Shown here: positions 4,061 to 43,195 of the stretch, piece by piece | Position numbering within the stretch: the first letter of the stretch is position 1 | Layout of the letters: every line of letters begins with the position of its first letter | NCBI GenBank assembly: GCA_045544055.1 | Contig: JAZPYF010000045.1 | Coordinates: 13,597-77,596 of the forward strand | DNA: 64,000 bases | From: Acutalibacteraceae bacterium | GTDB taxonomy: Bacteria > Bacillota > Clostridia > Oscillospirales > Acutalibacteraceae | Reading direction: 5' to 3' | Program-made: the position numbers and the translations under genes | Notes under the pieces: generated by a model | Seen by the model: only the letters and a program-made list of their open reading frames with translations | What the model was told of the DNA's origin: nothing | The model's database searches: none

Positions 4061-4525
4061 TTATTCGGGATATTTGAGCGTTTTTACGCTTACGCTCTTC
4101 ATTATCTCAACCATTCTTGCAGCCTCAGCTTTTGCTCCGTTGAGGTCGTGGTCACGGTAGTTGCCACATTCCTTTGCGCTTACGCCGGGAATCTCACCCT
4201 CATAGGCGGCAATAAAATCAAAGGCCTGCTTTGTCAGGTCAATAGCCTGCTCGGGTGAAATATCCGTACCGCGCACAAGAAAGTAAAAGCCTGTGCGGCA
4301 GCCCATAGGGCCAAAGTAGATAACGCCGTCGCTCAGCGGTGAGTTGCGTACAAAGGTCGCAAAAAGATGTTCAACCGTGTGGATTGAAGCGTTGTCCATA
4401 ACCTCTTCAACATTAGGCTTGCGGCAGCGGATGTCGTAGGTTACGATGTCACCGTCAACGCGTGATGTGTACATTCCGCAGGGAAGAATTGTATGGTCGA
4501 TTGTAAAGCTTGCAATTTTTTTCAT
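4061..4525 (-). CDS. luxS: S-ribosylhomocysteine lyase
   Basis: 154 aa. Metal motif HTVEHLF and GPMGCRTGFY, colinear with LuxS throughout. Confidence 0.9.
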   Translation of the reverse strand: MKKIASFTIDHTILPCGMYTSRVDGDIVTYDIRCRKPNVEEVMDNASIHTVEHLFATFVRNSPLSDGVIYFGPMGCRTGFYFLVRGTDISPEQAIDLTKQAFDFIAAYEGEIPGVSAKECGNYRDHDLNGAKAEAARMVEIMKSVSVKTLKYPE

Positions 4526-4540
4526 TATTTCAATACTCCT

Positions 4541-5065
4541 TTATACCTTGAAAATTCTTTTTGCCGTTCCGCTTTTTTTGAGAAGTATTCTCAGCGGAAT
4601 ACCGAGCAGACAGCACACCGCAAGCTCACCTATTCCGACCTGAAGCGCAGAGATTGCAAAGCCTGCCCAGGTGATGCCCTCGGGCAGAAAAACGGCAATT
4701 TCAATTCCGATTATAACGGCGTTGAAAAGCGTTGAAAAAACAGGTGCGAGCAGATAACCGGCTTTGGATGAAACATTCCTTGTTGCATAGGTGAAATACG
4801 CGGCAAGAAAGGTTGCAAGTGTGCCGAGCACAATGTCAAGTATGCCGAAAGGGCTGCTGAGGTTGCCGATAAAACAGCCGATTGTGAGCCCCGGTATTGC
4901 CGCAGGAGTGAAGCAGGCAAGCACGGTCAGCGCCTCGGAAAAGCGGAACTGAATACTGCCGTATGCGAGGTTGAGAATGCTCGCGGCATAGGTAAGTGCG
5001 GCGTAAAGTGCCGCAATCAGCGCAGCGTGGGCAATATATACTGTTGCTTTCCTGTTTTTGTTCAC
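4541..5065 (-). CDS. queT: QueT-like queuosine-precursor transporter (ECF S-component-like membrane protein)
   Basis: 174 aa, about five hydrophobic helices. The N-terminal ALIAALYAALTY...IQFRFSEALTVL pattern is as I recognise it from QueT. GTG start with AGGAG 9 nt upstream. Confidence 0.6.
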   Translation of the reverse strand: MNKNRKATVYIAHAALIAALYAALTYAASILNLAYGSIQFRFSEALTVLACFTPAAIPGLTIGCFIGNLSSPFGILDIVLGTLATFLAAYFTYATRNVSSKAGYLLAPVFSTLFNAVIIGIEIAVFLPEGITWAGFAISALQVGIGELAVCCLLGIPLRILLKKSGTAKRIFKV

Positions 5066-5282: not shown

Positions 5283-5312
5283 TTGACAAGTATTATAATT
5301 ACTTGTTAAAAT
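5283..5312 (+). promoter_or_regulatory. sigma-A-type promoter overlapped by a perfect 7-bp inverted repeat (candidate operator) for the 5371-11350 cluster
   Basis: TTGACA 5283-5288, 18-nt spacer, TAAAAT 5307-5312. Inverted repeat ACAAGTA (5286-5292) / TACTTGT (5300-5306) fills the spacer. Confidence 0.5.
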
Positions 5313-5370
5313 AAAGTGATTTTAATATAGGCGGCGAATAAGCGCCGCCTGATATAAGGAGGAAAGTGCT

Positions 5371-6129
5371 TTGACAGATTCAAAGACAATGGCCTACATA
5401 AATATGTACGCTGTTCTCGGCACACTTGAAAATCTTTGTGAGATCGACCCTGTCGCATCCGCAATCATTTCCAATCAAAAACCTATCTCCATCGGTTTTG
5501 ATGTAGCAGGCGGCCCCAAGGCTACTATCTACTTCAAGAACGGCAGATGCCGTATGGAGCAGGGCTGCTCAGCTTGTGATGTAAAGCTTCCGTTCAGCTC
5601 CTGTGAGAAGTTCAACGGACTTATCGACGGCACAGTAACGCCCATCCCCTCAAAGGGCTTCCAGCACATCGGCTTCCTGCTCAAGGGCTTTACCGCTCTG
5701 ACAGACCGTCTCTCAGCTCTTATGCGTCCCACACCTGAGGACCTTGAGGACAGAGAGTTCTTCGAAACCAGCACAAGACTCATGTTCTACACAATCTCCG
5801 TTGCTCTTTCACAGATTGCCAACAACGACGAGATCGGTAAGTTCTCCGCTCACCTCATCCCCGACGGTGAGATCGCTTTCAGCATTAAGGATGATGTTGC
5901 AGCAACAATCCGTGTAAAGAATCACAGACTTGTCACAGTCAAGCAGCGCTGCGAAAATCCCCGTGCATTCATGGAATTTGCAGATATTGATCTTGCACGT
6001 GACCTGTTCGACGGTAAGGTCAATGCTGTTGCCTGCATAGGCGAGGGCAAGATCGAGATGAAGGGCATGATCAATATGATCGACAATCTCAACAGAATAC
6101 TCGACAGAGTAGCTCTGTACTTAGCATAA
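5371..6129 (+). CDS. hypothetical protein with SCP2-like (sterol-carrier-like) C-terminus; paralogue of 9387-10196
   Basis: 252 aa. TTG start 8 nt after AAGGAGG. C-terminal FDGKVNAVACIGEGKIEMKGMINMIDNL resembles the SCP2 GKLKIxGxM motif. Colinear weak similarity to the protein at 9387-10196. Confidence 0.45.
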   Translation: MTDSKTMAYINMYAVLGTLENLCEIDPVASAIISNQKPISIGFDVAGGPKATIYFKNGRCRMEQGCSACDVKLPFSSCEKFNGLIDGTVTPIPSKGFQHIGFLLKGFTALTDRLSALMRPTPEDLEDREFFETSTRLMFYTISVALSQIANNDEIGKFSAHLIPDGEIAFSIKDDVAATIRVKNHRLVTVKQRCENPRAFMEFADIDLARDLFDGKVNAVACIGEGKIEMKGMINMIDNLNRILDRVALYLA

Positions 6130-6146
6130 ACGGAGGTGCAGAAAGA

Positions 6147-7409
6147 ATGAGTTTCCCGATTTACGACCATACAAAAAGCCGTGAGCTTTTTGACAGAGCC
6201 ACAAAGGTAATTCCCTCCGGTGTTTACGGTCACCTCGGCCCGGCGGAAGGTAACTTTATTCCCGTTTGCGACTGGCCGCTCTTCGGCGAGAAAGCAAAGG
6301 GCACATACTTCTGGGATGTTGACGGCAACAAGTACATCGACTATATGTGTGCATACGGCCCCAACGTTCTCGGCTATAACGATAAGGATGTTGACGCTGC
6401 AGCTATGGCTCAGGCAAAGCTCGGCAACTGTATGACATCTCCCGGCAAGGTAATGCTTGAGTTTGCAGAGCTTATGGTTGACACAGTCAACTGTGCGGAC
6501 TGGGCTTTCTTTGCAAAGAACGGTAACGACGTTACTACCTGCGCTATCATGACAGCACGTGCTGCAACACACCGCAAGAAGATTATTTTCGTAAACGGCT
6601 TCTATCACGGTGTTTCTCCCTGGACACAGAAGGTTGACTATCCCGGCGTTATCCCCGAGGATGTTGCAAACAACCTCTATGTTGACTGGAATGATTATGA
6701 GGCACTTGAAAAGCTCGTTGATGAAAACGACGGTGAGATTGCCGCATTTATCTCCACTCCCTATATGCACGGCAACTATCGTGACAACGAGACACCTGCT
6801 GACGGCTACTGGCAGAAGGTCCGCGACCTTTGCACACGCAAGGGCATCGTTCTCATCGTTGATGATGTTCGCTGCGGTTTCAGACTTGATATAGCAGGCT
6901 CCGACCATTACTACGGCTTCGAGGCGGACCTCATCTGCTTCTGTAAGGCACTTGCAAACGGCTGGAACGTATCCTGCCTTTGCGGTAAGGAATCACTCAA
7001 GAGCTCCGTCAGTGCTCTGAGCTACACAGGCAGCTACTGGATGAGCGCAATTCCCTTTGCTGCAGGTATTGCCTGTATCAACAAGATGAAGAAGCTCGAC
7101 ACTCCCAAGCTGTTCCGCGAAAAGGGCCTCAAGCTCACAGACGGTCTTAAGGAAGCTGCTGCAAACAACGGTTTTGACCTTGTTGTTTCCGGTGAACCCT
7201 CACTGTTCTATCTGCGAATCGCAAATGATAATTCAATGATGCTCCACCAGGAGTGGGTTGCAGAATGTGTCAAGAGAGGTATATTCTTCTCCAGCCATCA
7301 CAACCACTTCATCAATGCAGCTCTTTCAGATAAGGATATTGCTCTCACTCTTGAAGTTGCCGATGAGGCATTCAAGGTTGTTGCTGCAAAGCATCCCGAG
7401 CTTTTCTGA
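6147..7409 (+). CDS. class-III (GSA-aminomutase-like) PLP-dependent aminotransferase
   Basis: 420 aa. N-terminal RATKVIPSGV, DVDGNKYIDYMCAYGPNVLGY, VDDVRCGFR, and the presumed PLP lysine in FCKALANGW. Starts 17 nt after the preceding gene. Confidence 0.8.
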   Translation: MSFPIYDHTKSRELFDRATKVIPSGVYGHLGPAEGNFIPVCDWPLFGEKAKGTYFWDVDGNKYIDYMCAYGPNVLGYNDKDVDAAAMAQAKLGNCMTSPGKVMLEFAELMVDTVNCADWAFFAKNGNDVTTCAIMTARAATHRKKIIFVNGFYHGVSPWTQKVDYPGVIPEDVANNLYVDWNDYEALEKLVDENDGEIAAFISTPYMHGNYRDNETPADGYWQKVRDLCTRKGIVLIVDDVRCGFRLDIAGSDHYYGFEADLICFCKALANGWNVSCLCGKESLKSSVSALSYTGSYWMSAIPFAAGIACINKMKKLDTPKLFREKGLKLTDGLKEAAANNGFDLVVSGEPSLFYLRIANDNSMMLHQEWVAECVKRGIFFSSHHNHFINAALSDKDIALTLEVADEAFKVVAAKHPELF

Positions 7410-7463
7410 GATAAATTATTTTGATTTTTTAATGAAAATAAATATAATAGGAGGAAAAAAGAA

Positions 7464-8333
7464 ATGCCATTAACCAAACAAGAGTGGCTTGCACTCGAAA
7501 AAAAGGCACACGAACTTCGTAAGCTCTGCCTTGATACAACCTTCTGGGCAGGCAGTGCTCACATCGGCGGTGGTATGAGCGTTATGGATATCATGACTGT
7601 TCTTTACCACAAGTATATGCACCTTGACAAGGAGAACCCCAACTGGGAGGACAGAGACAGATTCATCCTCAGTAAGGGTCACGCAGGTGTTGCTTACGCT
7701 GCTGTTCTTTGCGACTACGGCTACAACGATCCCGAGCAGCTCAAGACTTTCAACCTTTCAAATTCCAAGATGGGTATCCATCTTGACTCCAATAAGGTTG
7801 TCGGTGCAGACGCTTCAACAGGTTCTCTCGGCCACGGTCTTTCAATCGCAGCAGGTACAGGTCTTGCCGCAAGAATCAAGGGCAAGGATTACAAGACTTT
7901 CTGCGTACTCGGTGACGGCGAATGTGACGAAGGCTCTAACTGGGAGGCTGCAATGACAATCGCTCACTACAACATCACAAACGTTATCTCTTTTGTTGAC
8001 CGTAACCAGTGCATGATCGACGGTCCGACAGAAGAAGTTATGAAGCTCGAGCCCTTCTGCGATAAGTGGCGTGCATTCGGCTTCCACGTTATCGAAATTG
8101 ACGGTAACAACATCAAGGAGCTTTGCGAAGCTATCGACTACGCTTACGAGCACACAGACAAGCCGGTTATGATTGTTGCAAACACAATCAAGGGCTGCTG
8201 TATCGACTATATGGAGAACGATTACAAGTGGCACTACGGCGCTCTCAATGAAGAGAAGTACGAACTTGCAAAGAAGAGCCTTGAGGCAGCATACAAGAAG
8301 CGCTGCGAAAGAGCAGAAAAGGAGGGTGCATAA
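7464..8333 (+). CDS. transketolase, N-terminal (TPP-binding) subunit
   Basis: 289 aa. HIGGGMSVMDI, SKGHAG, and TPP motif GDGECDEGSNWEA...N. GGAGGA RBS. Confidence 0.9.
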   Translation: MPLTKQEWLALEKKAHELRKLCLDTTFWAGSAHIGGGMSVMDIMTVLYHKYMHLDKENPNWEDRDRFILSKGHAGVAYAAVLCDYGYNDPEQLKTFNLSNSKMGIHLDSNKVVGADASTGSLGHGLSIAAGTGLAARIKGKDYKTFCVLGDGECDEGSNWEAAMTIAHYNITNVISFVDRNQCMIDGPTEEVMKLEPFCDKWRAFGFHVIEIDGNNIKELCEAIDYAYEHTDKPVMIVANTIKGCCIDYMENDYKWHYGALNEEKYELAKKSLEAAYKKRCERAEKEGA

Positions 8334-8336
8334 GCT

Positions 8337-9347
8337 ATGGCAGGCGGACTTACATATACAGCTACCGAATCAACAGCTTTCTCAACAGCTGAATATTACG
8401 GTAAGACTCTCGTAGAACTCGGTCAGGAGCATGACGATGTTGTCGCTCTCACAGCTGACCTTGGTAAATCGACAAAAATCGGTATGTTCGGTGAGCATTT
8501 CCCGGACAGATTCTTCAACGTAGGTATTGCTGAGCAGAATATGTTCGGTGTTGCAGCAGGTATGGCTAAGGCAGGCCTTGTTCCTTTCCTTTCCACCTTC
8601 TCGGTTTTCGCTTCTCTCAGAAGTGCTGACCAGCTCCACACAGATATCTGCTACCAGAATGTCAATGCAAAGATTATTGCAACTCACGCCGGTACATCTT
8701 TCGGTCAGGCAGGCTCAACACACCACGCAATCTGCGATATGGCTGTTGTTCGCTCAATGCCCAACATCACTCTCATCTGCCCTGCAGACGGCCTTGAAAC
8801 AGTTAACGCTGTCCGTGCAGCTTATGAGAATCCCGGCCCCTACTACATCAGAATCAACCGCGGCTTTGACCGTGTTCTTTACGAAACAACAGACTACGGC
8901 TTCGAGGTCGGCAAGGCTGTTCAGCTCAAAGAGGGTACAGATATCACCGTTATTGCTTGCGGTTCCTGTGCTTTCCAGGCTCTCCAGGCGGCAAACTTCC
9001 TTGAGAATGCAGACGGTCTGAAGGTCAGAGTTATCAATATGCACACAATCAAGCCCCTTGATAAAGAGGCTGTTGTCAAGGCAATTATGGATACACGCCG
9101 TATCATCACAGTAGAGGATCACTCCGTTATCGGCGGTCTCGGTGCTGCTGTTGCAGAGGTTATTGCCGAAACAGGTAAGGGCTGTGCATTCAGGCGCCTC
9201 GGTATCCAGGATCAGTTCGCTCCCATCGGTCTGCACGAGGATATTATGTCCTCACTCGGTATCGATTCCAACGGTATCATCGCAGCAGTCCGTGAGGCAA
9301 TGAACGCTGACTTTGAGCTTGACGACGATTGGGACGACGAGGTTTAA
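8337..9347 (+). CDS. transketolase, C-terminal (pyrimidine-binding) subunit
   Basis: 336 aa. FNVGIAEQNMFGVAAGMA motif. Starts 3 nt after the N-terminal subunit stop, with GGAGG inside the upstream gene end. Confidence 0.9.
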   Translation: MAGGLTYTATESTAFSTAEYYGKTLVELGQEHDDVVALTADLGKSTKIGMFGEHFPDRFFNVGIAEQNMFGVAAGMAKAGLVPFLSTFSVFASLRSADQLHTDICYQNVNAKIIATHAGTSFGQAGSTHHAICDMAVVRSMPNITLICPADGLETVNAVRAAYENPGPYYIRINRGFDRVLYETTDYGFEVGKAVQLKEGTDITVIACGSCAFQALQAANFLENADGLKVRVINMHTIKPLDKEAVVKAIMDTRRIITVEDHSVIGGLGAAVAEVIAETGKGCAFRRLGIQDQFAPIGLHEDIMSSLGIDSNGIIAAVREAMNADFELDDDWDDEV

Positions 9348-9386
9348 TCTACGGATTGAATTTCAACGCAGAAAGGATTGATTTTT

Positions 9387-10196
9387 ATGTCTACAAGAGA
9401 CGAAGTTTTTACCAATAAAATTTTCCTCTGTGCTGCGATCCCGCTTATCAAGGTCATTGCCAACGATGTTCCTAACCTTGCAAAGAAGTTTGAGCACGCT
9501 CACTCTATCTACCAGATCAGTGCGCTTTGCCCCGATGTTCCCGAGGGTAAGGTCGGCACACACCTTGTTGTCAACAACGGTGAGTGGATAGTTCACACAG
9601 ATAAGCTCACAAACAACGCTCATGTAGAGCTTGAGTTCAAGAGCATTGAGGCTCTCAACGCTTTCTTCAAGGGTCAGATTAAGCCGCAGTACCTCCCCAA
9701 AATGAAGGGCCTTGCAAAGCACACAGGTGCATTTGCCTCCTTCATGATGGTTCTTCTTAAAATGTCCTCTCTCCTCACGGCTAAAGAGCCTCCGCAGGAT
9801 GAGGAAACAAAGAAGCTTCTTGTAAAGTGCTACTTCTACCTGCTCTCCAGCGGTATCAGCACACTTAACAAGAACGGTCACGAGGCAGTCCACGATTGGA
9901 CTTCAAAGAGTCCCGACCGTGTTTACTCCTGGGCTGTTGACGGCTACCCCGAGGTCAGCGCATATATCAGAATCAAGGCAGGTAAGTCAAGAGCAGGCAG
10001 AGGCGAGTACAAGCGTGCAATGCCGTTCTTCACAATGCGCTTTGATAACTTTGACAGCGCTCTCGGTATCCTTATGCAGACAGACGATATGCTCGAATCC
10101 GTTAAGTCAGGTAAGCTCATTATGGACGGTGCTCCCGAATTTGGTGCACAGCTTGGTGACTTCATGATTCAGGTCGGCGCATACGCACAGGGCTAA
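9387..10196 (+). CDS. hypothetical protein with SCP2-like C-terminus; paralogue of 5371-6129
   Basis: ATG 9387 preferred over the track's TTG 9378 (GAAAGGA upstream). C-terminal SVKSGKLIMDGAPEFGAQLGDFM aligns with GEGKIEMKGMINMIDNL of the first copy. The central acidic linker (KEPPQDEETKK versus RPTPEDLEDRE) is also shared. Confidence 0.45.
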   Translation: MSTRDEVFTNKIFLCAAIPLIKVIANDVPNLAKKFEHAHSIYQISALCPDVPEGKVGTHLVVNNGEWIVHTDKLTNNAHVELEFKSIEALNAFFKGQIKPQYLPKMKGLAKHTGAFASFMMVLLKMSSLLTAKEPPQDEETKKLLVKCYFYLLSSGISTLNKNGHEAVHDWTSKSPDRVYSWAVDGYPEVSAYIRIKAGKSRAGRGEYKRAMPFFTMRFDNFDSALGILMQTDDMLESVKSGKLIMDGAPEFGAQLGDFMIQVGAYAQG

Positions 10197-10330
10197 TAGA
10201 AAAAAGGTACAGGGCAGTATGTTTTACTGCTCTGTATATGCCTTAATTTATAACAGAAAGGAAAAGATACCGGGCACTAAGCGTTGCTTTTTTATCAGTC
10301 TTTAGTGTACACCGTGTATCGCACCGTGAT

Positions 10331-11350
10331 ATGAAAGTATTTATGATTGGCGGCACAGGTCTGCTCGGCAGCGAAGCCGCAAGAATTTTTATCGAGAGAG
10401 GCCACCAGGTCAAGAGCGTTGCTCTTCCTCCTCTTCCCGAAGGAGCTCCTATCCCTGAAGAGATGGAAATTGAGCTTTGCAACATCTATGAAAAGTCTGA
10501 CGAAGAAATCAAGGAAATGATGAAAGGCTGTGACTGCTTCGTATTTGCAGCAGGTATCGACGAGCGCGTTGAATTCCCTGCTCCCGTATATGATGCTTAC
10601 TACAAGTACAACATTGCTCCTCTCAAGAGATTTCTTCCCCTCTGTAAGGAAATCGGCATGAAGAATGCTGTTATCCTCGGCTCATACTTTGCATACCTTG
10701 CAAAAGAGCGTCCCGATATGAAGCTCACAGAGAAGCATCCCTACATCCGCAGCAGAATTGACCAGGAAGAGGTTGCTTTTTCCTATGCTGATGAGAACTT
10801 TGATGTTGCTGTTCTTGAGCTGCCCTATATCTTTGGCACTCAGCCCGGCAGAAAGCCCGTTTGGGTTATTCTCATTGAGCAGATCAAGATGATGGATAAG
10901 CTGCCCTGCACAATGTACCCGGGCGGCGGTACAGCAATGCTTACTGTTCGTCAGGTTGGCCAGGTTATTGTCGGCGCTGCAGAAAAGTCAAAGGGCGCTA
11001 AGGCATGGCCTATCAGTATGTACAACCAGACATGGAAGAAATTCCTCAAGATTGTATATGCAGCAAGAGGTATGGGTGAAAACCGCAAGATTATCAGCGT
11101 TCCCCCCTGGATGATGCGTATGGGTCTTGGCAAGGTCAAGAAGGAATATGCTGAAAAGGGCATTGAGAGCGGTATTGATGTTGACGGACTTGCAGATATC
11201 ATGGATATCAACCTCTTTATCGACCGTAAGTATTCTGTTGAGCTCGGCGCAACAGAGGACGATATCAAGGCAGCTATCACCGATTCAATCAAGGTCAGCC
11301 AGGCTTCCTATGACGGTACAGTCAAGCTCCTTGAAATGAAGGGCGAATAA
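10331..11350 (+). CDS. NAD(P)-dependent oxidoreductase, extended-SDR / epimerase-dehydratase family
   Basis: 339 aa. N-terminal Rossmann motif MKVFMIGGTGLLGSEAA. Separated from the upstream gene by 134 nt containing an imperfect hairpin (10210-10242). Confidence 0.75.
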   Translation: MKVFMIGGTGLLGSEAARIFIERGHQVKSVALPPLPEGAPIPEEMEIELCNIYEKSDEEIKEMMKGCDCFVFAAGIDERVEFPAPVYDAYYKYNIAPLKRFLPLCKEIGMKNAVILGSYFAYLAKERPDMKLTEKHPYIRSRIDQEEVAFSYADENFDVAVLELPYIFGTQPGRKPVWVILIEQIKMMDKLPCTMYPGGGTAMLTVRQVGQVIVGAAEKSKGAKAWPISMYNQTWKKFLKIVYAARGMGENRKIISVPPWMMRMGLGKVKKEYAEKGIESGIDVDGLADIMDINLFIDRKYSVELGATEDDIKAAITDSIKVSQASYDGTVKLLEMKGE

Positions 11351-11411: not shown

Positions 11412-11449
11412 AAAAAAGAACTCCTGATATTTTTATCGGGAGTTCTTTT
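11412..11449. terminator. bidirectional rho-independent terminator between the SDR gene (+) and rpiB (-)
   Basis: Stem GAACTCCTGAT / ATCGGGAGTTC (one G-U pair), flanked by an A-run upstream and TTTT downstream. Confidence 0.75.
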
Positions 11450-11502: not shown

Positions 11503-11931
11503 TTATTCCAGCATATCCACTCTGTTCTTGTGTCTGCCGCCCTCAAATTTGCCGCTGAGCCAGCTTTCAGTAATCATCAAAGCCAGGTCCCTGCCCACAA
11601 CTCTTGCGCCGATTGCAAGCACGTTTGTATCGTTATGCTGACGGGAGAGCAGGGCTGAATACGGCTCGCTGCACACAACCGCACGAATACCTTTCACCTT
11701 GTTTGCGGCAATTGAAATTCCGACGCCCGTGCCGCAAATCAGTATCCCTTTCTCACATTCGCCGCTTGCAACAGCCTGAGCTACTGCCTTGCCGAAAACA
11801 GGATAGTCCGTACGCTCGGTACCGTGTGTACCGAAATCCTTAATGCTGTATCCTTTTTCACGCAAAAAGTCGATTATATGGTTTTTCAGCTCAAATCCAA
11901 CGTGGTCACAGCCGATTGCAATCTGCATCAT
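11503..11931 (-). CDS. rpiB: ribose-5-phosphate isomerase B / allose-6-phosphate isomerase (RpiB/LacAB family)
   Basis: 142 aa. IAIGCDHVGFELK and GILICGTGVGISIAANK motifs. ATG overlaps the stop of the upstream gene (ATGA). Confidence 0.88.
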   Translation of the reverse strand: MMQIAIGCDHVGFELKNHIIDFLREKGYSIKDFGTHGTERTDYPVFGKAVAQAVASGECEKGILICGTGVGISIAANKVKGIRAVVCSEPYSALLSRQHNDTNVLAIGARVVGRDLALMITESWLSGKFEGGRHKNRVDMLE

Positions 11932-12941
11932 TTTACGTTTTCTTTTGTAACAACATAGGAATCAACGGGTATGGTCTGCGGCGTTGCGTTGGGGTCGAAT
12001 TTAGGTTTGCTCTTTGCCGCCTCAACCATTTTTCGCAGTGAGGTTGCACCGATTTCGGCAGGGTCCTGCGCAACTGTTGCACTGAGCTGACCTGCGCGTA
12101 TTGATTCGAGCGCCTCTGCTGAGCCGTCTGTACCTACAACAATAATTTTGCCGAGCTTGTCAGCGTTGATTACTGCCTGAAGAGCGCCGAGCGCCATTGT
12201 ATCGTTACAGCAGTAAATTGCCTTGAGGTCGGGGTACATCTGGATATATCCCGTTGCGGTATCAAGCGCCTTCTGTCTGTCCCAGTCAGCAGGCTGTGAA
12301 GCAACAAGTTTTATGCCTTCTGTTGCTTTGAATGTCTTTGTTGCGCCTGCTTTTCTGGATTCACCTGAGGCGTTGCCTGCCTTACCCTCGATAATTGCAA
12401 CGTCGCCGCCGCTTTTGCCGAGCTGATTTATAATGAACTTTGCGCCTCTCTCACCGACAGCCTCATTGTCTGTTGTAGCAAAGGCTATTACGCTTCCGCC
12501 TGCGTTACGCAGGGAATCAATGTCAATTTTTTCATCAATGTTCATCACATAGATTCCTTTTTCATTCGCCTGCACAATGCCGTTGATAAGGTTTGTGGGG
12601 GAGAGGGGAGCTACGCCGATTGCCTTATAGCTTTTGGTCAGACAGTTTTCGAGTATGGTGAGCTGACCTGCGGTGTCCTCTTCATTTTGTGCGGCGAAAA
12701 TATCAACCTTTACGCCGAGCTTCTTTGCTTCCTCTTCAATTCCCGATTTCATCTTTGCCCAGAAATCGTTGGAGAGTGTTTTGAGGATTATTGCATAATC
12801 CGAATTGCCGGATGCCATGTCGGAAACACCTGAAGAATTGGGGTTGGTTTTGTCAGCAGGGTCATTGCCGCCGCAGGCTGTGAGAGTTAAACAAATCAGA
12901 GCCAGAGTGAGCAGGACTGCCGATATTTTTCTTACCTTCAT
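11928..12941 (-). CDS. sugar ABC transporter substrate-binding lipoprotein (RbsB/AlsB-like)
   Basis: Lipobox LTLTACGG, periplasmic-binding-protein fold type I pattern. Start set to the second ATG (12941), which has AAGAGGT 7 nt upstream. The track start 12959 is also possible. Confidence 0.8.
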   Translation of the reverse strand: MKVRKISAVLLTLALICLTLTACGGNDPADKTNPNSSGVSDMASGNSDYAIILKTLSNDFWAKMKSGIEEEAKKLGVKVDIFAAQNEEDTAGQLTILENCLTKSYKAIGVAPLSPTNLINGIVQANEKGIYVMNIDEKIDIDSLRNAGGSVIAFATTDNEAVGERGAKFIINQLGKSGGDVAIIEGKAGNASGESRKAGATKTFKATEGIKLVASQPADWDRQKALDTATGYIQMYPDLKAIYCCNDTMALGALQAVINADKLGKIIVVGTDGSAEALESIRAGQLSATVAQDPAEIGATSLRKMVEAAKSKPKFDPNATPQTIPVDSYVVTKENVK

Positions 12942-12955
12942 ATTATTACCTCTTT

Positions 12956-13888
12956 TCATTTGTTTGTTATATTATTCCCGATTTGTCTGAGATATTCATT
13001 CAGCGCATAATCTCCGCTGCCGAAAACACCGCTTTGCTGGTCGTGTCGGGTGAAAATGATGTTAAGATTCTTTTCGGGATAGGGCTTGCGCACATAAAAC
13101 CGGATGGCGTCGCTGAGCACATCTTTCGGAAAGCCCTCCATATCAACAACTCCGCCGCCGATTATACTGCAGTCCGGGTCTAAAATGTTGATCTGCGTTG
13201 CAATCGGTACGGCAAGGTCACGAGCGAATTTTTTAATCTGAGGATCGTCAGCGTGCTTTGCAAATATTTTTTTGATATCTGTATGCGGGAAAAAACGCTT
13301 TGCCAATGCTTCAAGTGCCTTGCCCGAACAGCGTGTTTCAATGCAGCCTGTGTTGCCGCAGGTGCATTTTTCAGTGCTGTCCAGAATCGGTATATGTCCA
13401 AGCTCTCCTGCCGCTCCGTTGCTTCCTCCGTAAAATCTGCCGCCGATTGATATTGCGTTGCCAAAGCCCGTTCCTATATAAAAGCCGAGCACGGTTTTTT
13501 CGCCGGAAAGACCGAGCTTTGATATATCGTTCTGCAACAGGAAGTTGACATCTCTGTCCACATAAACTGGAAAGCCGAGCGCTTCTTCAAAATCCTGTGC
13601 GAAGCTTACACCGTCGAATCCCTTGAGGTTAGGAGAAGAGAGTACGGATTTTTTGTCCTTGCTTACAAGGGCAGGCAAGCCGATTCCGCAAGCCTTGATT
13701 CTGCCCTCAAAGCCGCTGTCCTTAAGATAGGTGACTATTGCACCCTTGAGAGCGTTTACGGTGTCACCCTCTTCAAAAATTAGGCTTGAAGAGCGCGTGA
13801 AAGCGTAAATCTGACCGTCTCCGCCAACAACGCCCATACGGAAGTTTGTGCCGCCGATATCAATTCCGAGTGCGAAAATATCGCTCAA
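12956..13888 (-). CDS. ROK-family sugar kinase (AlsK-like)
   Basis: 310 aa. N-terminal LGIDIGGTNFR ATP motif and ROK zinc motif GHIPILDSTEKCTCGNTGCIE. TTG start overlaps the upstream stop (TTGA), with GGGAGGG 6 nt upstream. Confidence 0.85.
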   Translation of the reverse strand: MSDIFALGIDIGGTNFRMGVVGGDGQIYAFTRSSSLIFEEGDTVNALKGAIVTYLKDSGFEGRIKACGIGLPALVSKDKKSVLSSPNLKGFDGVSFAQDFEEALGFPVYVDRDVNFLLQNDISKLGLSGEKTVLGFYIGTGFGNAISIGGRFYGGSNGAAGELGHIPILDSTEKCTCGNTGCIETRCSGKALEALAKRFFPHTDIKKIFAKHADDPQIKKFARDLAVPIATQINILDPDCSIIGGGVVDMEGFPKDVLSDAIRFYVRKPYPEKNLNIIFTRHDQQSGVFGSGDYALNEYLRQIGNNITNK

Positions 13889-14574
13889 TTTTTACCCTCC
13901 CTGTCGGTTGCGTTGATGAAATCCGCCTGCATTTTGTCCCACGCTTTTTCAAGGCTGCAGTCAAGCGAAAAAAGCCCCGAAGTGCCTACAACAAAGCATT
14001 CGGCACCTGCCGAATAAAGCTCACCGAATGTGCCGGCGTTGCACGAGCCGTCAACCTCGATGATATAGTTATATCCGTTTTTCTCTTTAAGTGTGCGTGC
14101 CTGCTCAATTTTAGTGAGCATTTCACGGATGAACGGCTGACCTGCAAAGCCGGGGTCAACTGTCATGATTGTGATTTTGTCGAGCAGGTGCAGATAATAC
14201 TGTGCTGTTGAGAGTGGAGTTGCAGGGTTGAGGACAATGCCTGCCTTGCATCCGCAGGATTTTATTGTGCCGATTGTACGGAATGCGTTTGCGGTAATCG
14301 TTTCCGCCTGAGGGCATATATACGAGGCACCTGCCGCCTTGAGCGGAGCAATGTAATCGGCAGGGTTTGTGACCATAAGGTGGCAGTCGAGCGGTCGCTT
14401 CGCCACGGTAGAAACCGCACGCACAAAGTCGGGCGAGAGAGTGAGATTCGGCACATAGTGACCGTCCATTATATCAATGTGGTAAAAATCACAGCGAGTA
14501 TTGAGTGTTTGGATTTGTTCTTTGATGTTGAGAAAGTCCATGCACATAAGTGACGGGCTGAAAAGAGCTGACAC
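13885..14574 (-). CDS. ribulose-phosphate 3-epimerase family protein (allulose-6-phosphate 3-epimerase-like)
   Basis: 229 aa. SLMCMDF...HIDIMDGHYVPN and MTVDPGFAGQ motifs. GTG start with AGGAGGT 7 nt upstream. Confidence 0.85.
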   Translation of the reverse strand: MSALFSPSLMCMDFLNIKEQIQTLNTRCDFYHIDIMDGHYVPNLTLSPDFVRAVSTVAKRPLDCHLMVTNPADYIAPLKAAGASYICPQAETITANAFRTIGTIKSCGCKAGIVLNPATPLSTAQYYLHLLDKITIMTVDPGFAGQPFIREMLTKIEQARTLKEKNGYNYIIEVDGSCNAGTFGELYSAGAECFVVGTSGLFSLDCSLEKAWDKMQADFINATDREGKN

Positions 14575-14586
14575 AGCTTATACCTC

Positions 14587-15555
14587 CTATTTCTTTCCCG
14601 CTACAAAGCGGTCGAGTGTTACCGAGCCGATAATAAGCGCACCCATTACAACCTGCTGAAGCGTGCTTGATACGGAGAGAAGATTCATGCCGAAGTTAAT
14701 TACGCCGATTATCAATCCACCCATTACAACTCCGAAAATTTTGCCCTTGCCGCCAAAAAAGCTTGTACCGCCGATTATTGCTGCGGCAATTGCGTAGGTC
14801 TCAAAGCCTGTTGCTGCCGCAGGCTCAGCCGAGCCTACACGGCCGAGCAGAACAACGCCTGCAATTCCTGCACATATTCCGGAAATCACAAACACAATCA
14901 GCGTGTGGAGCTTTACGTTGATACCCGAGTACCAGGCACTCTCCTTATTGCCGCCCAGTGCGTAGATGTTTCTGCCGAGCTTTGTCTTTTTGGTAAGAAA
15001 AGCCAGCAGCAGCGCAACCGCAAGCGCAATAATTGCCGAAACGGGTATATACACAAGCCTCTGCGCCATAAATTTTGTGAAGCTGCCGGGAAAGCCGAAA
15101 ACGGCGCTTGAGTTTGAAACAATCAGCGTGACACCGCGGAATATTGCCTGAGTGCCGAGCGTAATGATAAAGGGGTGAAGCCGTGTTGCATTGACGAGTA
15201 TTCCGTTGGTAAAACCGAGTATTGCACCGAGAAAAATTCCGAGCATTACGGCAATAAGCGGTGCAGTACCGCCGACCATGAGCTTTGCCGTAAACATTCC
15301 CGACAGCGCAACAACCGAGCCGACAGAAAGGTCAATGCCCGCAATCAGAATTGCAAAAAATTCTCCCAGCGCAATCAGAATGTTTACCGAACTTTGCGAA
15401 AGAATCTGTGTAACTGTTGACGGCTGGAAAAAGTAATTCGGTTTGAGTACGGCGAGTATTAAAAGCAGCAGCACCAGAATGCCGAGCGTGCCGTAGCGCT
15501 GCCATATCTGATTGAAAGACGGTCTTTCGCGTTGAATTTTGTTTTCGGCTGTCAA
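14587..15555 (-). CDS. sugar ABC transporter permease (RbsC/AlsC-like)
   Basis: Polytopic membrane protein. The track ORF (to 15672) carries an Arg-rich, non-membrane N-terminal extension that overlaps the ATPase gene. TTG at 15555 has AAAGGAG 10 nt upstream and overlaps the ATPase stop (TTGA). Confidence 0.85.
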   Translation of the reverse strand: MTAENKIQRERPSFNQIWQRYGTLGILVLLLLILAVLKPNYFFQPSTVTQILSQSSVNILIALGEFFAILIAGIDLSVGSVVALSGMFTAKLMVGGTAPLIAVMLGIFLGAILGFTNGILVNATRLHPFIITLGTQAIFRGVTLIVSNSSAVFGFPGSFTKFMAQRLVYIPVSAIIALAVALLLAFLTKKTKLGRNIYALGGNKESAWYSGINVKLHTLIVFVISGICAGIAGVVLLGRVGSAEPAAATGFETYAIAAAIIGGTSFFGGKGKIFGVVMGGLIIGVINFGMNLLSVSSTLQQVVMGALIIGSVTLDRFVAGKK

Positions 15556-17093
15556 GGTTTGGTTTCTCCTTTCGGCGCGGTTGATGCCGCAATAATTTTT
15601 TCTTCCGTTGCATTTTTGTGGTCGAACATTGCAACGATTTCGCCCTCTCTGAAAACGGCGATAGTGTCGCATACGGCGAGCAGCTCGGGCAGCTCTGAGC
15701 TGACAACAAGCACACCCTTGCCCTCATTTGCAAGCCGTCTCATAAGGGTGTATATTTCGCCCTTTGAGCCGACGTCAATTCCCTTTGTCGGCTCGTCAAA
15801 TATTATGATTTGCGAATTTGCGGCAAGCCATTTGCCGAGAATTACCTTCTGCTGGTTGCCGCCCGAAAGCTCTGTTATTCCCTGCGTTGTCGAGTAGCAT
15901 TTGATGTTGAGGCTTTTTCTTTGTTCCTCTGCCCATCTGTTTTCTTCATCTTTGTCGGTCAGCCCGATCGTGCCGCCGCCCAAAGACTGCTTGACAAACG
16001 GCAGAATGGAAATGTTTTTCTTTATGCTGAAATTGTGGAAAAATCCTGTTTCGCGTCGGTTTTCCGTTACCATTGCCATTGAGTTTTTGATTGCCTGATA
16101 TGGGTTGGATATTTTTACGGGCTTTGAATTTATCAGAATTTCGCCCGAGGTTCTCGGCTCTGCGCCGAATATGGAGTTCATCATCTCGCTGCGTCCCGAG
16201 CCGACAAGCCCCGAAAAACCGAGTATTTCACCGCGCCTTAGCCGAAAGGAAACGTTTTTAACCTTGCCGTCTGCCCTGGAGAGATTTTTCACCTCAAATA
16301 TGGTGTCAGCATCGGAAAAATCATCGGTTTCGCTTTGGTAGCTTTTGCTGATTTGTCTGCCGACCATCATTGTAACAAGGTCATCCTGCGTGACCTCACT
16401 TACCCTTTTTGTGCCGACATAGGTGCCGTCCTTAAGCACGGTCACACGGTCGCCGATTTCCATTATTTCACCGAGCTTGTGCGAAATAAAAACAATTCCC
16501 TTGCCCTCTTTTTTCAGCCGCCTTACAACCTCAAAAAGGTGGCTTACCTCACTTGAGGTGAGTGAGGTTGTCGGTTCATCCATGATAAGAATATTACTGT
16601 TTGCGGCAAGAGCCTTGGCAATTTCAACCTGCTGCTTTTCGGATATGCTCAGCTCCTCAACAAGGGTCTCGGGGCTTCTGTTTAGGCCCACTTTTTTTAT
16701 AAGCTCTGTTGCTTGTTGGTTTATCAGCTTATAGTCCACTACCTTGAGCGGGCCAAGCTTTTTCATCGGCAATCGCCCTATAAAAAGGTTTTCCTGAATT
16801 GAAAGCTCGTTGATAACGCTCAGCTCCTGGTAGATTACGCTGATTCCGTTATCCCTCGAATCTTTCGGCGATAAGCTTTTGAACTCCTGCTCACCGAGAA
16901 CTATACTTCCGCTTGTGGGCTTGTGAACTCCGCTGAGAATTTTCATCAGCGTGGATTTGCCGGCTCCGTTTTCACCCAGCAGCACATGCACTTCTCCTGC
17001 AAGAATTTCAAAGGTGATTCCGCTAAGTGCAGTTACGCCCGGAAATTTTTTTGTGACATCTTTCATTTTTGCCAGCGTTTTTATTGTTATCAC
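15552..17093 (-). CDS. sugar ABC transporter ATP-binding protein with two ABC cassettes (RbsA/AlsA-like)
   Basis: Two Walker A sites (GENGAGKST, GLVGSGRSE) and two signature motifs (LSISEKQ, LSGGNQQ). The start is uncertain: GTG 17093 or ATG 17066. The track's 17171 start adds a non-homologous leader. Confidence 0.85.
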   Translation of the reverse strand: MITIKTLAKMKDVTKKFPGVTALSGITFEILAGEVHVLLGENGAGKSTLMKILSGVHKPTSGSIVLGEQEFKSLSPKDSRDNGISVIYQELSVINELSIQENLFIGRLPMKKLGPLKVVDYKLINQQATELIKKVGLNRSPETLVEELSISEKQQVEIAKALAANSNILIMDEPTTSLTSSEVSHLFEVVRRLKKEGKGIVFISHKLGEIMEIGDRVTVLKDGTYVGTKRVSEVTQDDLVTMMVGRQISKSYQSETDDFSDADTIFEVKNLSRADGKVKNVSFRLRRGEILGFSGLVGSGRSEMMNSIFGAEPRTSGEILINSKPVKISNPYQAIKNSMAMVTENRRETGFFHNFSIKKNISILPFVKQSLGGGTIGLTDKDEENRWAEEQRKSLNIKCYSTTQGITELSGGNQQKVILGKWLAANSQIIIFDEPTKGIDVGSKGEIYTLMRRLANEGKGVLVVSSELPELLAVCDTIAVFREGEIVAMFDHKNATEEKIIAASTAPKGETKP

Positions 17094-17226
17094 ACCTTTT
17101 TGTTTTGGCTTTGCTTTAGTATGCACTTTATCAGCACTTTTTATGAATAATTGAAGAAAACATCTTGACAATACTATGCATATAAAATGTATAATAATAT
17201 AAAGAGAAACCAGAGGAGGTAATGCT

Positions 17227-42208: not shown

Positions 42209-42284
42209 GCGGATGTAGCTCATCTGGTAGAGCGCCACCTTGCCAAGGTGGAGGTAGCGAGTTCGAGCCTCGTCATCCGCTCCA
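42209..42284 (+). tRNA. tRNA-Gly (anticodon GCC), CCA encoded
   Basis: Folded by hand. 7-bp acceptor stem GCGGATG/CATCCGC, D-arm GCTC/GAGC, anticodon stem CCACC/GGTGG with loop TTGCCAA, T-arm GCGAG-TTCGAGC-CTCGT, 3' TCCA. Confidence 0.93.
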
Positions 42285-42324: not shown

Positions 42325-42349
42325 CTATATAATCACACCAACAACTGAA

Positions 42350-42495
42350 AATGCCAAATGGGGTGCTGATGTTATCGGCTGAGAGTCGGGCTTGGAGTCC
42401 GTAACCCTTGAACCTGATCCGGGTAATGCCGGCGTAGGAATTTTAAGTGTTGCAGCTTATTCGCCAACAGGAGAAATTCCTTTTGGCGTTTTTTT
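42350..42495 (+). promoter_or_regulatory. TPP (THI-box) riboswitch with terminator-type expression platform
   Basis: Conserved core GGGGTGC...GCTGAGA...ACCCTTGAACCTGATCCGGGTAATGCCGGCGTAGGAA (42360-42440). Terminator CGCCAA..AGGA-loop-TCCT..TTGGCG plus T7 at 42462-42495. Upstream promoter TTGACA 42305-42310 / TATAAT 42328-42333. Confidence 0.9.
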
Positions 42496-42529: not shown

Positions 42530-43195
42530 ATGTCAAACAGTCTCAACCGAACAGAAACCACAAAACGTCTCGCACTCAGCGGAATTATGCTTGCCATGAG
42601 TACGGTGCTCTCATTTGTCAAGGTCTTTGAATGGCCTTTCGGTGGCAGTATTACAGCCTGCTCTATGCTGCCGATTGCTATGCTGGGCTACACCTACGGC
42701 ACAAAATGGGGTCTCGTCTGCGGTCTTGTTCACGGTGTGCTCCAGGCAATAACCGGTGCAACTATGAGCTCTGCCTTTGCAGGTCAGGATGCAGGCAGCG
42801 TTGCCGCAATAGTTGCGATTGATTATCTTGTTGCGTTTGCCGTAGTCGGTGTTGCAGGTATGTTCAAGGGCAGAACAAAAAGCCACACTCTCTCCTTTGC
42901 TGCCGGTACGGCAATTGCTGTTTTCCTGCGCTATGTCGCTCACGTAATTTCAGGCTATATTTTTTACAGGTCATATGCCGATTGGTTTTTCGGTGAGGTT
43001 ATGGTCAACGAATTTTCGGCTGAGCTTATGGAAAAATGCTCTCCAAATCAGTTGGGCTTTATATATTCTGTAATTTATAATGCCGCTTATATGATTCCTG
43101 AGCTGATACTTACTACCGTTGTGGCGGCGCTTGTGATAGCGCTTATTGCCCCCGTAAGGAAAGAAATGATTAAAAACGTAGTATCACAAAAATAA
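42530..43195 (+). CDS. thiT: thiamine transporter ThiT (ECF S component)
   Basis: 221 aa, six hydrophobic helices. Lies directly downstream of the TPP riboswitch. The N-terminal TKRLALSGIMLAMSTVLSFV pattern is ThiT-like. Confidence 0.8.
   Translation: MSNSLNRTETTKRLALSGIMLAMSTVLSFVKVFEWPFGGSITACSMLPIAMLGYTYGTKWGLVCGLVHGVLQAITGATMSSAFAGQDAGSVAAIVAIDYLVAFAVVGVAGMFKGRTKSHTLSFAAGTAIAVFLRYVAHVISGYIFYRSYADWFFGEVMVNEFSAELMEKCSPNQLGFIYSVIYNAAYMIPELILTTVVAALVIALIAPVRKEMIKNVVSQK

Follow-up and report, generated by a model that had tools for sequence, protein, structure and literature searches.

The stretch analysed here (the window: 64,000 nucleotides of contig JAZPYF010000045.1 from an Acutalibacteraceae bacterium) carries an operon in which a transketolase split over two genes is joined to a class-III aminotransferase and to a pair of proteins resembling sterol carrier protein 2 (SCP2). 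Six open reading frames (ORFs) lie in a row on the + strand. Gene 1 (5371–6129) encodes a 252-aa tandem SCP2-like protein of two homologous lobes; gene 2 (6147–7409) a 420-aa, FumI-like class-III aminotransferase dependent on pyridoxal phosphate (PLP), with the PLP lysine at K267; gene 3 (7464–8333) the 289-aa N, or PP-domain, subunit of the transketolase; and gene 4 (8337–9347) its 336-aa C subunit (Pyr and C-domain), which has a non-canonical substrate site. They are followed by gene 5 (9387–10196, with an alternative TTG start at 9378), a second, 269-aa tandem SCP2-like paralogue, and by gene 6 (10331–11350), a 339-aa Rossmann-fold protein resembling the extended short-chain dehydrogenases/reductases (SDRs) and a lineage-specific accessory. 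The intergenic gaps measure 17, 54, 3, 39 and 134 nt with gene 5 beginning at ATG 9387, the start favoured because homologues measure 267–270 aa; counted from TTG 9378, the gap between genes 4 and 5 is 30 nt. A promoter-like site stands in front (5283–5312, + strand; TTGACA, an 18-nt spacer and TG-n-TAAAAT, with 11 of 12 matches and the extended −10 TG), and behind gene 6 lies an intrinsic terminator-like hairpin (11414–11449, + strand; A-run, 16-bp stem and T-run, usable from both strands), the strongest such site of the region. An earlier note on this DNA had reported the six co-directional genes with these gaps, the promoter and a terminator behind the operon, and all of them were found again.

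The conserved unit consists of five genes, not six. A scan of one genome per species with gene 1 returned 532 stretches, of which the best 80 loci were taken for neighbourhood comparison; these belong to Acutalibacteraceae, Oscillospiraceae or Ruminococcaceae of the ruminant and human gut, and the nearest relative of gene 1 in the scan, at 98% identity, comes from an Acutalibacteraceae metagenome-assembled genome. The order gene 1, aminotransferase, transketolase N, transketolase C, gene 5 is found in all sufficiently long loci among these best 80 of 532, while the flanks around the five-gene core vary, with at least five different arrangements. Gene 6, in the same set of loci, is confined to those with a gene 1 of 83% or more identity to the window copy and is thus lineage-specific, so that the six-gene operon of the earlier note holds for its five-gene core, its last member being restricted to the subclade of the window. 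No regulator gene is adjacent to the cassette in the Oscillospirales loci, and a search of a plasmid collection with gene 1 gave zero matches.

The same unit recurs well outside Oscillospirales. Gene 4 was compared with 1.84 billion cluster representatives, the closest (57% identical) was used for a second search, and the contigs were then inspected. The same five-gene order is present in an Arcanobacterium (L085), a spirochaete (L086), a Mobiluncus-type actinomycete (L087), a Vallitalea (L089) and a 986-kb metagenomic contig (L090), and a Myxococcota contig (L088) has it permuted to transketolase N, transketolase C, gene 5, gene 1, aminotransferase. Identity to the window proteins in these other phyla is 32–38% for gene 1, 54–64% for gene 2, 46–64% for gene 3, 55–66% for gene 4 and 33–53% for gene 5. 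The lineages beyond Oscillospirales thus comprise Actinomycetaceae (urogenital and animal), environmental Spirochaetota, Vallitalea and Myxococcota; Arcanobacterium pluranimalium and the isolate Acutalibacteraceae bacterium SVS042 have the cassette or one closely related to it, as, presumably, do cultivable Mobiluncus species. Because the five-gene order recurs in all long-enough loci and in other phyla, the arrangement is far beyond chance, and the gene neighbourhood, conservation of which had been set as a check on the earlier proposal, is kept both within Oscillospirales and across phyla. The persistence of the linkage through inter-phylum transfer and permutation of the gene order argues strongly for a joint function of the five proteins.

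In five of the six non-Oscillospirales loci, the sixth gene, after gene 5, encodes a glyoxalase-fold (VOC) protein (L085 10829–11383, L086 10828–11346, L087 10987–11673, L089 10847–11356 and L090 10816–11337). These proteins are weakly glyoxalase-I-like, scoring 48–53 bits against a cut-off of 120, and the three sequences read (L085–L087) have a hydrophobic C-terminal tail that ends in aromatic and basic residues. A TetR regulator gene follows the glyoxalase-fold gene in L089 and L090, and an MFS gene lies directly upstream in L086. Accessory genes of this kind point to an inducible module for detoxification or catabolism.

In the window, the 5′ leader holds a hairpin (GGCGGCG-AATAA-GCGCCGCC, 5331–5350, + strand) upstream of the ribosome-binding site AAGGAGG (5356–5362). 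A near-consensus promoter (TTGACA-N17/18-TAAAAT type) and a strong ribosome-binding site precede gene 1 in every clade examined, and gene 1 has its own promoter even in loci with a pfs gene directly upstream. The GC-rich hairpin between promoter and ribosome-binding site keeps its position in many related loci, with equivalents at matching positions in L005, L010, L021, L030, L035 and L084, although the sequences are unrelated; it is probably a 5′ stem-loop that stabilises the mRNA rather than a riboswitch. The G+C content of the operon is 48.4%, against 47.1% for the window. Judged from its sequence signals, the operon is apparently expressed autonomously, constitutively and strongly. The 54-nt gap between the aminotransferase and transketolase N genes contains a further promoter-like site (7421–7448, + strand, 10 of 12 matches), which may be an internal promoter or a chance match. 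Some other loci have enlarged gaps of 190–700 nt, between genes 2 and 3 in L001, L050 and L070 and between genes 4 and 5 in L055 and L056; these hold palindromic repeats, GTGAATAG/CTATTCAC-like units around a GC hairpin that resemble repetitive extragenic palindromes (REP) or miniature inverted-repeat elements (MITE), and those of L050, L055 and L056 also hold one or two small ORFs for short hydrophobic peptides. A search of Rfam with the leader and the enlarged gaps matched no family.

Genes 1 and 5 belong to protein families with 2271 and 1133 relatives in the database, all unnamed and mostly from uncultured gut Clostridia. Gene 1 matches the Pfam model SCP2 (PF02036) at 24.6 bits against a cut-off of 21.3, in its C-terminal half only, and the same model matches 16 of 16 aligned members of the family, with 30.8 bits for the Vallitalea homologue. 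Its AlphaFold model (mean predicted local distance difference test score, pLDDT, 87) has two alpha/beta lobes, and the top 46 Foldseek matches in the PDB are all of the SCP2 fold, with UbiJ-SCP2 first (E 1.7e-5); the structural neighbours are UbiJ-SCP2, alkylsulfatase C-domains and sterol carrier proteins, at a target-normalised TM-score of about 0.65. The N- and C-terminal halves are homologous to each other (E 3e-6), and the N-terminal lobe is assigned as SCP2-like because of this internal repeat alone. Together with the predicted structure, this is strong evidence for a two-lobed SCP2-like protein.

The case is weaker for gene 5, which would be a two-lobed SCP2-like protein mainly by way of its homology to gene 1. 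Pfam and NCBIfam gave no match, nor did Pfam across 16 members of the family; the two proteins are distant paralogues (24% identity and E 2e-7 in BLASTP, E 5e-6 in profile–profile comparison), and the AlphaFold model (pLDDT 84.8) has a two-lobe layout like that of gene 1. On these models each cassette encodes four predicted SCP2-like lobes. Of the two SCP2-like paralogues of the earlier note, gene 1 is in this way borne out by profile and fold, and gene 5 is a probable one through its homology to gene 1. An invariant basic loop in gene 5 (KAGKSRAGRGEYKRAMP, residues ~196–213) is among the most conserved stretches of its family and is predicted to be disordered, with pLDDT below 50 at 199–213; we speculate that it contacts a membrane or an anionic group. 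A four-cysteine metal site in gene 1 (C60, C66, C69, C78) was considered and dropped, as C66 varies in 4 of 16 sequences and C78 in 1 of 16.

Gene 2 matches Aminotran_3 (PF00202) at 126.9 bits. Its best solved relative is FumI (6hbs; 300.9 bits, E 1e-88, residues 8–413), and glutamate-1-semialdehyde aminomutases reach at most 150.7 bits; the FumI score is twice that of any other solved protein. K267 lies in FCKALANG, which aligns with WGKCFANG of FumI. All NCBIfam equivalogs score gene 2 below their cut-offs, including HemL, which it is not by this measure (223.2 bits vs 398 for NF000818; 200.3 vs 527.3 for TIGR00713). FumI takes the 2-amino group off hydrolysed fumonisin B1, an analogue of sphinganine, with pyruvate as acceptor and gives a 2-ketone, of which the authors likened the C1–C5 part to a simplified ketose (PMC3136697). 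The likeness to FumI is a lead to the substrate class of gene 2, not proof of it.

Genes 3 and 4 score above the Pfam thresholds, gene 3 with Transketolase_N (PF00456, 158.4 bits) and gene 4 with Transket_pyr (PF02779, 139.8 bits) and Transketolase_C (PF02780, 99.7 bits), and their best relative in the PDB is the split transketolase of Carboxydothermus hydrogenoformans (ChTK; 6yak, 240.8 bits, for gene 3 and 6yaj, 278.6 bits, for gene 4). The NCBIfam model NF004559 gives 246.6 and 261.8 bits; its cut-off of 488 was set for a fused 627-aa protein, and the two half-scores sum to about this value, hence the model does not discriminate. The catalytic apparatus is complete: equivalents of E. coli H26, H66, H100, H261 and H473, the set tested, are all present. 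Gene 3 keeps H33, H73, H106, H257 and the motif for thiamine diphosphate (ThDP) and Mg, G150-D151-G152 with N181, and gene 4 keeps S45, E66 (the activating Glu), H117, H129 and R175; H33, H73, H106, GDG and H129 are conserved wherever checked in orthologues.

The substrate site is where the enzyme departs from the canon. Gene 4 has A18 at the position of human R318 and E. coli R358, and Q124-A125 at the Glu-Asp site, so that A125 corresponds to human D424 and E. coli D469 and the motif reads GQAGSTHH vs the canonical GEDGxxHQ. R358, S385, H461 and R520 of the E. coli enzyme hold the substrate phosphate, and D469, with histidines, hydrogen-bonds the sugar hydroxyls and selects the stereoisomer (PMC11387542); replacement of D469 makes room for non-polar acceptors (PMC5073344). 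In gene 4 the phosphate-binding set is incomplete, with three residues retained and the R358 equivalent replaced. Among close orthologues, A125 is found in 66/66 and A18 in 64/66; in the distant clade, the Asp position is Ala in 121/121, with S45, H117, H129 and R175 invariant, and one of Ala, Ser and Thr stands at the R358 equivalent in 66/66 of the close members and in 113/121 of the distant ones. These signature residues were also surveyed in the best 150 cluster representatives (50% clustering) nearest to gene 4: the canonical Arg/Asp pair occurs in 73 of them, all at most 48% identical to gene 4, and the nearest representatives share Ala/Ala. By sequence, the pair does not branch among enzymes of canonical signature and falls in a distinct clade. 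About half of the representatives (P0241–P0390) are without Arg/Asp and show many other combinations (R..L, R..A, R..T), which may represent numerous uncharacterised families of specialised transketolase-like enzymes.

Because the Asp and one phosphate-binding Arg are replaced, we infer an acceptor or leaving aldehyde with neither a 2-hydroxyl nor a phosphate, that is, an aliphatic one. With S45, H117 and R175 retained, the second substrate bound may still be a sugar phosphate, and the kept donor-hydroxyl histidines H106 and H129 favour a 1-hydroxy-2-ketone as donor rather than a methyl ketone.

Gene 6 carries the Rossmann motif GGTGLLGS and matches the Pfam families Epimerase (33.9 bits) and NAD_binding_10. 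The YxxxK motif is found nowhere in the protein, which has just HPYIRSR (Y-x3-R), and no relative was detected among solved structures in the PDB. The earlier designation as a Rossmann SDR is therefore right as to the nucleotide-binding motif and not as to a canonical SDR active site; gene 6 may be an atypical, possibly non-redox, SDR-fold protein. A side-chain logic borrowed from hopanoid synthesis (HpnG nucleosidase, HpnO aminotransferase, HpnA) was rejected: the best NCBIfam match of gene 6, the HpnA-type model, reaches 35.9 bits where 367 are required, and the gene is not a conserved part of the cassette. Speculatively, the variable sixth gene, SDR-like or glyoxalase-fold, adjusts the ketol, for example by epimerisation or reduction, or handles the aldehyde.

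From the gene content, folds, active-site substitutions and conservation given above, we infer a substrate class, a carrier role and a direction of flux. The reaction that we tentatively prefer, as a quite possible one, is hydrophobic aldehyde + C2 ketol ⇄ 1,3-dihydroxy-2-ketone ⇄ 2-amino-1,3-diol, the last of sphingoid type. The SCP2-like proteins would bind the poorly soluble substrate and pass it to the enzymes; the aminotransferase would interconvert a hydrophobic 2-amino-1,3-diol and a 1,3-dihydroxy-2-ketone by means of a keto acid/amino acid pair; the ThDP enzyme would break or make the C2–C3 bond of the ketone, between an aliphatic aldehyde without a 2-hydroxyl and a C2 ketol; and the ketol unit would move to or from a sugar phosphate. 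The earlier note had suggested that the operon acts on a hydrophobic ketol rather than on pentose phosphates, and this gains from the SCP2-type folds, the loss of Asp and Arg, the separate clade and the conserved neighbourhood; so does its amino-diol option, from FumI being the closest solved relative of gene 2. Transketolase followed by transaminase is an established laboratory route to 2-amino-1,3-diols (PMC5813273).

As to direction, we lean towards a catabolic or detoxifying one, in which the amino-diol would be converted to the ketone and this to a fatty aldehyde and a C2 unit, the latter salvaged into sugar-phosphate metabolism. We do so because the TetR, MFS and glyoxalase-fold partners typify inducible detoxification modules, and because sphingoid bases inhibit bacterial growth and bacteria hold dedicated operons that counter them (PMC11398299).

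Several points weigh against the proposed hydrophobic substrate and its carriers. The SCP2 fold alone does not prove lipid binding, and the Foldseek matches of gene 5 to it are weak (E 4e-3 to 0.1), the top ones being mostly of the SCP2 fold. Genes 1 and 5 are 70–98% conserved within Oscillospirales, with many invariant polar residues, a pattern as compatible with a scaffold or an enzyme as with a carrier. Gene 2 and FumI are ~40–45% identical, as estimated by eye in their alignment, which is no sure guide to the substrate. Stereochemistry poses a further difficulty: the ketols made and cleaved by canonical transketolases are 3S, the ketone from natural D-erythro sphingoid bases would be 3R, and hydrolysed fumonisin is 2S,3S, so that a threo amino-diol, a changed facial selectivity or an epimerase is needed, and the variable sixth gene may be the epimerase for the ketol. 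Finally, with its near-consensus promoter and with neither regulator nor transporter, the Oscillospirales operon looks more like housekeeping or biosynthesis than inducible catabolism.

The first alternative, which we consider unlikely, gives the enzymes a small polar substrate and makes the SCP2-like proteins scaffolds or regulatory subunits of a transketolase–aminotransferase complex. Candidate substrates would be 5-deoxyribose, methylthioribose or another by-product of S-adenosylmethionine metabolism, or else an amino-deoxy sugar or polyol. This reading draws on the neighbours of the cassette. In the window, luxS and a QueT transporter gene lie divergently upstream (4061–4525 and 4541–5065, − strand); luxS adjoins the cassette in one large Oscillospirales clade (17 loci, the window included), a gene for a Pfs/MtnN-type nucleosidase lies directly upstream on the same strand in 25 loci of another, and one locus has the order luxS–pfs–cassette. 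Examples of such neighbourhoods are the window, L045 (9126–9818) and L057. A transketolase is known to act on such a by-product, that of cyanobacteria converting 5-deoxyribose to 7-deoxysedoheptulose; conservation of genes 1 and 5 exceeds that usual for lipid carriers, with invariant polar residues in abundance, and three of the four phosphate-site residues are kept. The adjacency to luxS or pfs is, however, missing from the other Oscillospirales clades and from all cassettes of other phyla, and for this reason we read it as probably inherited synteny; the cassette moreover has its own promoter even behind pfs, and on these two grounds the link to S-adenosylmethionine by-products was down-weighted. 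Loss of the Asp that reads the 2-hydroxyl of the acceptor speaks against aldose acceptors (PMC11387542), and a small polar substrate gives little reason for four SCP2-like lobes or for a glyoxalase-fold partner with a hydrophobic tail.

Quite unlikely, in our estimate, is the same chemistry run towards synthesis, the transketolase joining a fatty aldehyde to a C2 ketol donor and the aminotransferase giving a sphingoid-type base. In its thriftiest form, serine is the amino donor and the hydroxypyruvate that it releases is the transketolase donor, independently of serine palmitoyltransferase; the net reaction of this two-enzyme cycle, aldehyde on the SCP2-like proteins + serine → amino-diol + CO2, is more doubtful still. 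Such a self-contained cycle would explain why just two enzymes are universally conserved, and strong constitutive-type promoters, the lack of a regulator and high conservation over 532 species hits resemble a core function. The product of a transketolase would be 3S, unlike natural sphingoid bases, and none of the lineages inspected has, linked to its cassette, a gene for supplying fatty aldehyde, for an N-acyltransferase or for any other step of lipid assembly. Transketolase/transaminase cascades to amino-diols do work in vitro (PMC5813273), and transaminases are able to supply hydroxypyruvate from serine (PMC8719814); the kept S45, H117 and R175 suggest a phosphorylated co-substrate instead of hydroxypyruvate, and the TetR, MFS and glyoxalase-fold partners of other phyla resemble catabolism or detoxification. 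A weak and indirect hint is that Flavonifractor plautii, a member of Oscillospirales, is a reported producer of phytosphingosine, with the genes unnamed (PMC11914097).

Very improbable is steroid side-chain cleavage of the DesAB type, the other option of the earlier note, in which the transketolase would remove the C20–C21 ketol of cortisol-like steroids, the SCP2-like proteins carry the steroid and the SDR act as hydroxysteroid dehydrogenase. DesAB is indeed a split transketolase acting on a lipophilic 1-hydroxy-2-ketone with a 3-hydroxyl (PMC3735941, PMC12876203), sterols are bound by SCP2 domains, a Rossmann-fold gene adjoins the cassette in the clade of the window, and the loss of Arg and Asp would also suit a bulky non-polar partner. 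No specific support for it emerged, however: the SDR is missing from most cassettes, lacks YxxxK and has no detectable solved relative, and the constant partner is an aminotransferase, of no use in side-chain cleavage. Environmental spirochaetes, Vallitalea and Myxococcota, in which glucocorticoids are not expected, carry the cassette, as do hundreds of species in all, while desmolase carriers are described as relatively low in abundance (SSTDhunter, PMC12876203).

A housekeeping transketolase of the pentose-phosphate pathway with unrelated operon partners is hardly credible and was rejected on active-site and clade evidence (64-kb window, locus flanks, 150 representatives): a split transketolase is the normal form in many Clostridia and the sole one in C. 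hydrogenoformans (PMC7661550), neither the 64-kb window nor the loci compared, with flanks of ±10 kb, show a second transketolase, and gene 4 is very strongly conserved, yet the invariant Asp-to-Ala and frequent Arg-to-Ala replacements fall on positions that bind sugar phosphate and select the stereoisomer (PMC11387542), split transketolases of canonical signature lie in other clusters at no more than 48% identity, and the linkage to aminotransferase and SCP2-like genes outlasts inter-phylum transfer and permutation.

Further features were noted in the window and in one other clade. Convergent with the operon, and sharing its bidirectional terminator (11414–11449), is a six-gene sugar operon on the − strand (11503–17171) that encodes RpiB, a periplasmic-type sugar-binding protein, a ROK kinase, a protein of the ribulose-phosphate 3-epimerase family, a permease and a double ABC ATPase; the earlier note had already placed a sugar operon with rpiB and a 3-epimerase there, and its composition, as predicted, matches an allose (als)-type utilisation operon. 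Further along on the + strand, a tRNA gene (42209–42281), a thiamine pyrophosphate (TPP) riboswitch (42349–42457, 66 bits) and a ThiT/YuaJ-type thiamine transporter gene (42530–43195) follow one another, the riboswitch directly in front of the transporter gene, which suggests that the organism takes up thiamine, from which the cofactor of transketolase is made. In the clade of L035, genes for an amidohydrolase of the prolidase or ochratoxin-amidase type and for a 389-aa membrane protein lie downstream of the cassette on its strand (L035 10604–13083). The best PDB match of the amidohydrolase is 2p9b (288 bits), its equivalents take the same position in L037, L039–L042 and L082, and a family search with the membrane protein of this clade was without match; the amidohydrolase could release a free amine as substrate, but the arrangement is clade-specific.

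Our literature searches found no description of this gene combination, in keeping with the earlier statement that no characterised pathway has it, and nothing relevant on a transketolase in the catabolism of sphingoid bases or fumonisin. A paper on dirAB was discarded as a precedent for a transketolase; it concerns dehydrogenases. What is new is the gene combination and both SCP2-like families; the component enzyme families, and specialised transketolases as such, are already known, and there is a real chance that the pathway itself is new. To our knowledge, few transketolases act beyond pentose phosphates, the steroid desmolase and the sulfo-sugar and apulose enzymes being the known examples. 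The cassette, which occurs in over 500 species-level genomes from gut Oscillospirales as well as in Actinomycetaceae of urogenital and animal origin, would add a specialised transketolase with unprecedented partners, and two unnamed families of ~250–270-aa proteins (2271 and 1133 members) would be defined as tandem SCP2-fold proteins. If the substrate is of sphingoid type, anaerobes would destroy or make host-antimicrobial, signalling lipids independently of oxygen; the bacterial fate of sphingoid bases is unresolved even in Pseudomonas (PMC11398299). If the cycle without serine palmitoyltransferase operates, sphingoid-like lipids would arise in a large group of gut Oscillospirales, in Actinomycetaceae and in spirochaetes through a pathway that is known from no organism. 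A natural Asp-to-Ala and Arg-to-Ala transketolase may also already own the substrate range for which engineers select (PMC5073344).

Set beside known transketolases, the enzyme resembles ChTK (6yaj/6yak) in the N/C split over two genes, the ThDP/Mg motif, the catalytic histidines and the activating Glu, and differs from it at the positions of R358 and D469, where ChTK has Arg and Asp, with GEDGASHQ, and the window enzyme Ala at both, with GQAGSTHH; the ChTK paper reports no linkage to aminotransferase or SCP2-like genes (PMC7661550). DesAB of Clostridium scindens, likewise a split pair of a gut anaerobe with a lipophilic 1-hydroxy-2-ketone as substrate (PMC3735941, PMC12876203), may be the best functional analogy for genes 3 and 4. 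Compared by description only, the des operons carry hydroxysteroid dehydrogenases and a transporter and no aminotransferase or SCP2-like genes, and these partners (desC/desE, for 20-hydroxysteroid dehydrogenase, and the transporter) are not the universal partners of the cassette. The anisomycin proteins AniP, AniQ and AniN form a conserved triad of transketolase-like ThDP enzyme, aminotransferase and short-chain dehydrogenase, and AniP has lost phosphate-binding residues and takes non-phosphorylated substrates (PMC11387542). In contrast to the split cassette enzyme with its kept histidines, AniP is a single polypeptide in which the histidine motif of transketolases is missing and for which an aromatic keto acid serves as donor, and the ani clusters have no SCP2-like genes and another role for the aminotransferase.

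The engineered cascade, from aldehyde and ketol donor to a 1,3-dihydroxy-2-ketone and on to a 2-amino-1,3-diol (PMC5813273), is the chemistry we propose, and E. coli transketolase engineered by mutations of D469 and the phosphate site takes non-polar aldehydes (PMC5073344). These are laboratory constructs with unrelated omega-transaminases and short polar aldehydes, and no natural transketolase–transaminase pathway of this kind was found in our literature searches. FumI of Sphingopyxis sp. MTA144 shares with gene 2 the class-III fold and, in its long-chain 2-amino-3-hydroxy substrate, the proposed chemistry, but this substrate is without the C1 hydroxyl of the proposed 2-amino-1,3-diol, and its catabolic cluster for fumonisin contains the carboxylesterase FumD and tricarballylate-related genes, with no mention of a transketolase or SCP2 (PMC3136697).

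For the SCP2-like proteins, the nearest parallel is of the UbiJ/UbiT type. An SCP2 protein of the ubiquinone pathway offers a hydrophobic intermediate to the soluble enzymes there, which is the role proposed here for genes 1 and 5, and UbiJ-SCP2 is the top structural neighbour of gene 1; genes 1 and 5 differ from it as duplicated, two-lobed proteins of ~250–270 aa, with 12–14% identity in structural alignment. The sphBCD operon of Pseudomonas aeruginosa works by other means, with a periplasmic cytochrome c, an FMN oxidoreductase and a PLP aldolase, and is oxygen- or respiration-linked and periplasmic. As an operon that removes antimicrobial sphingoid bases, it is the known system closest to the physiological role that we propose for the cassette (PMC11398299).

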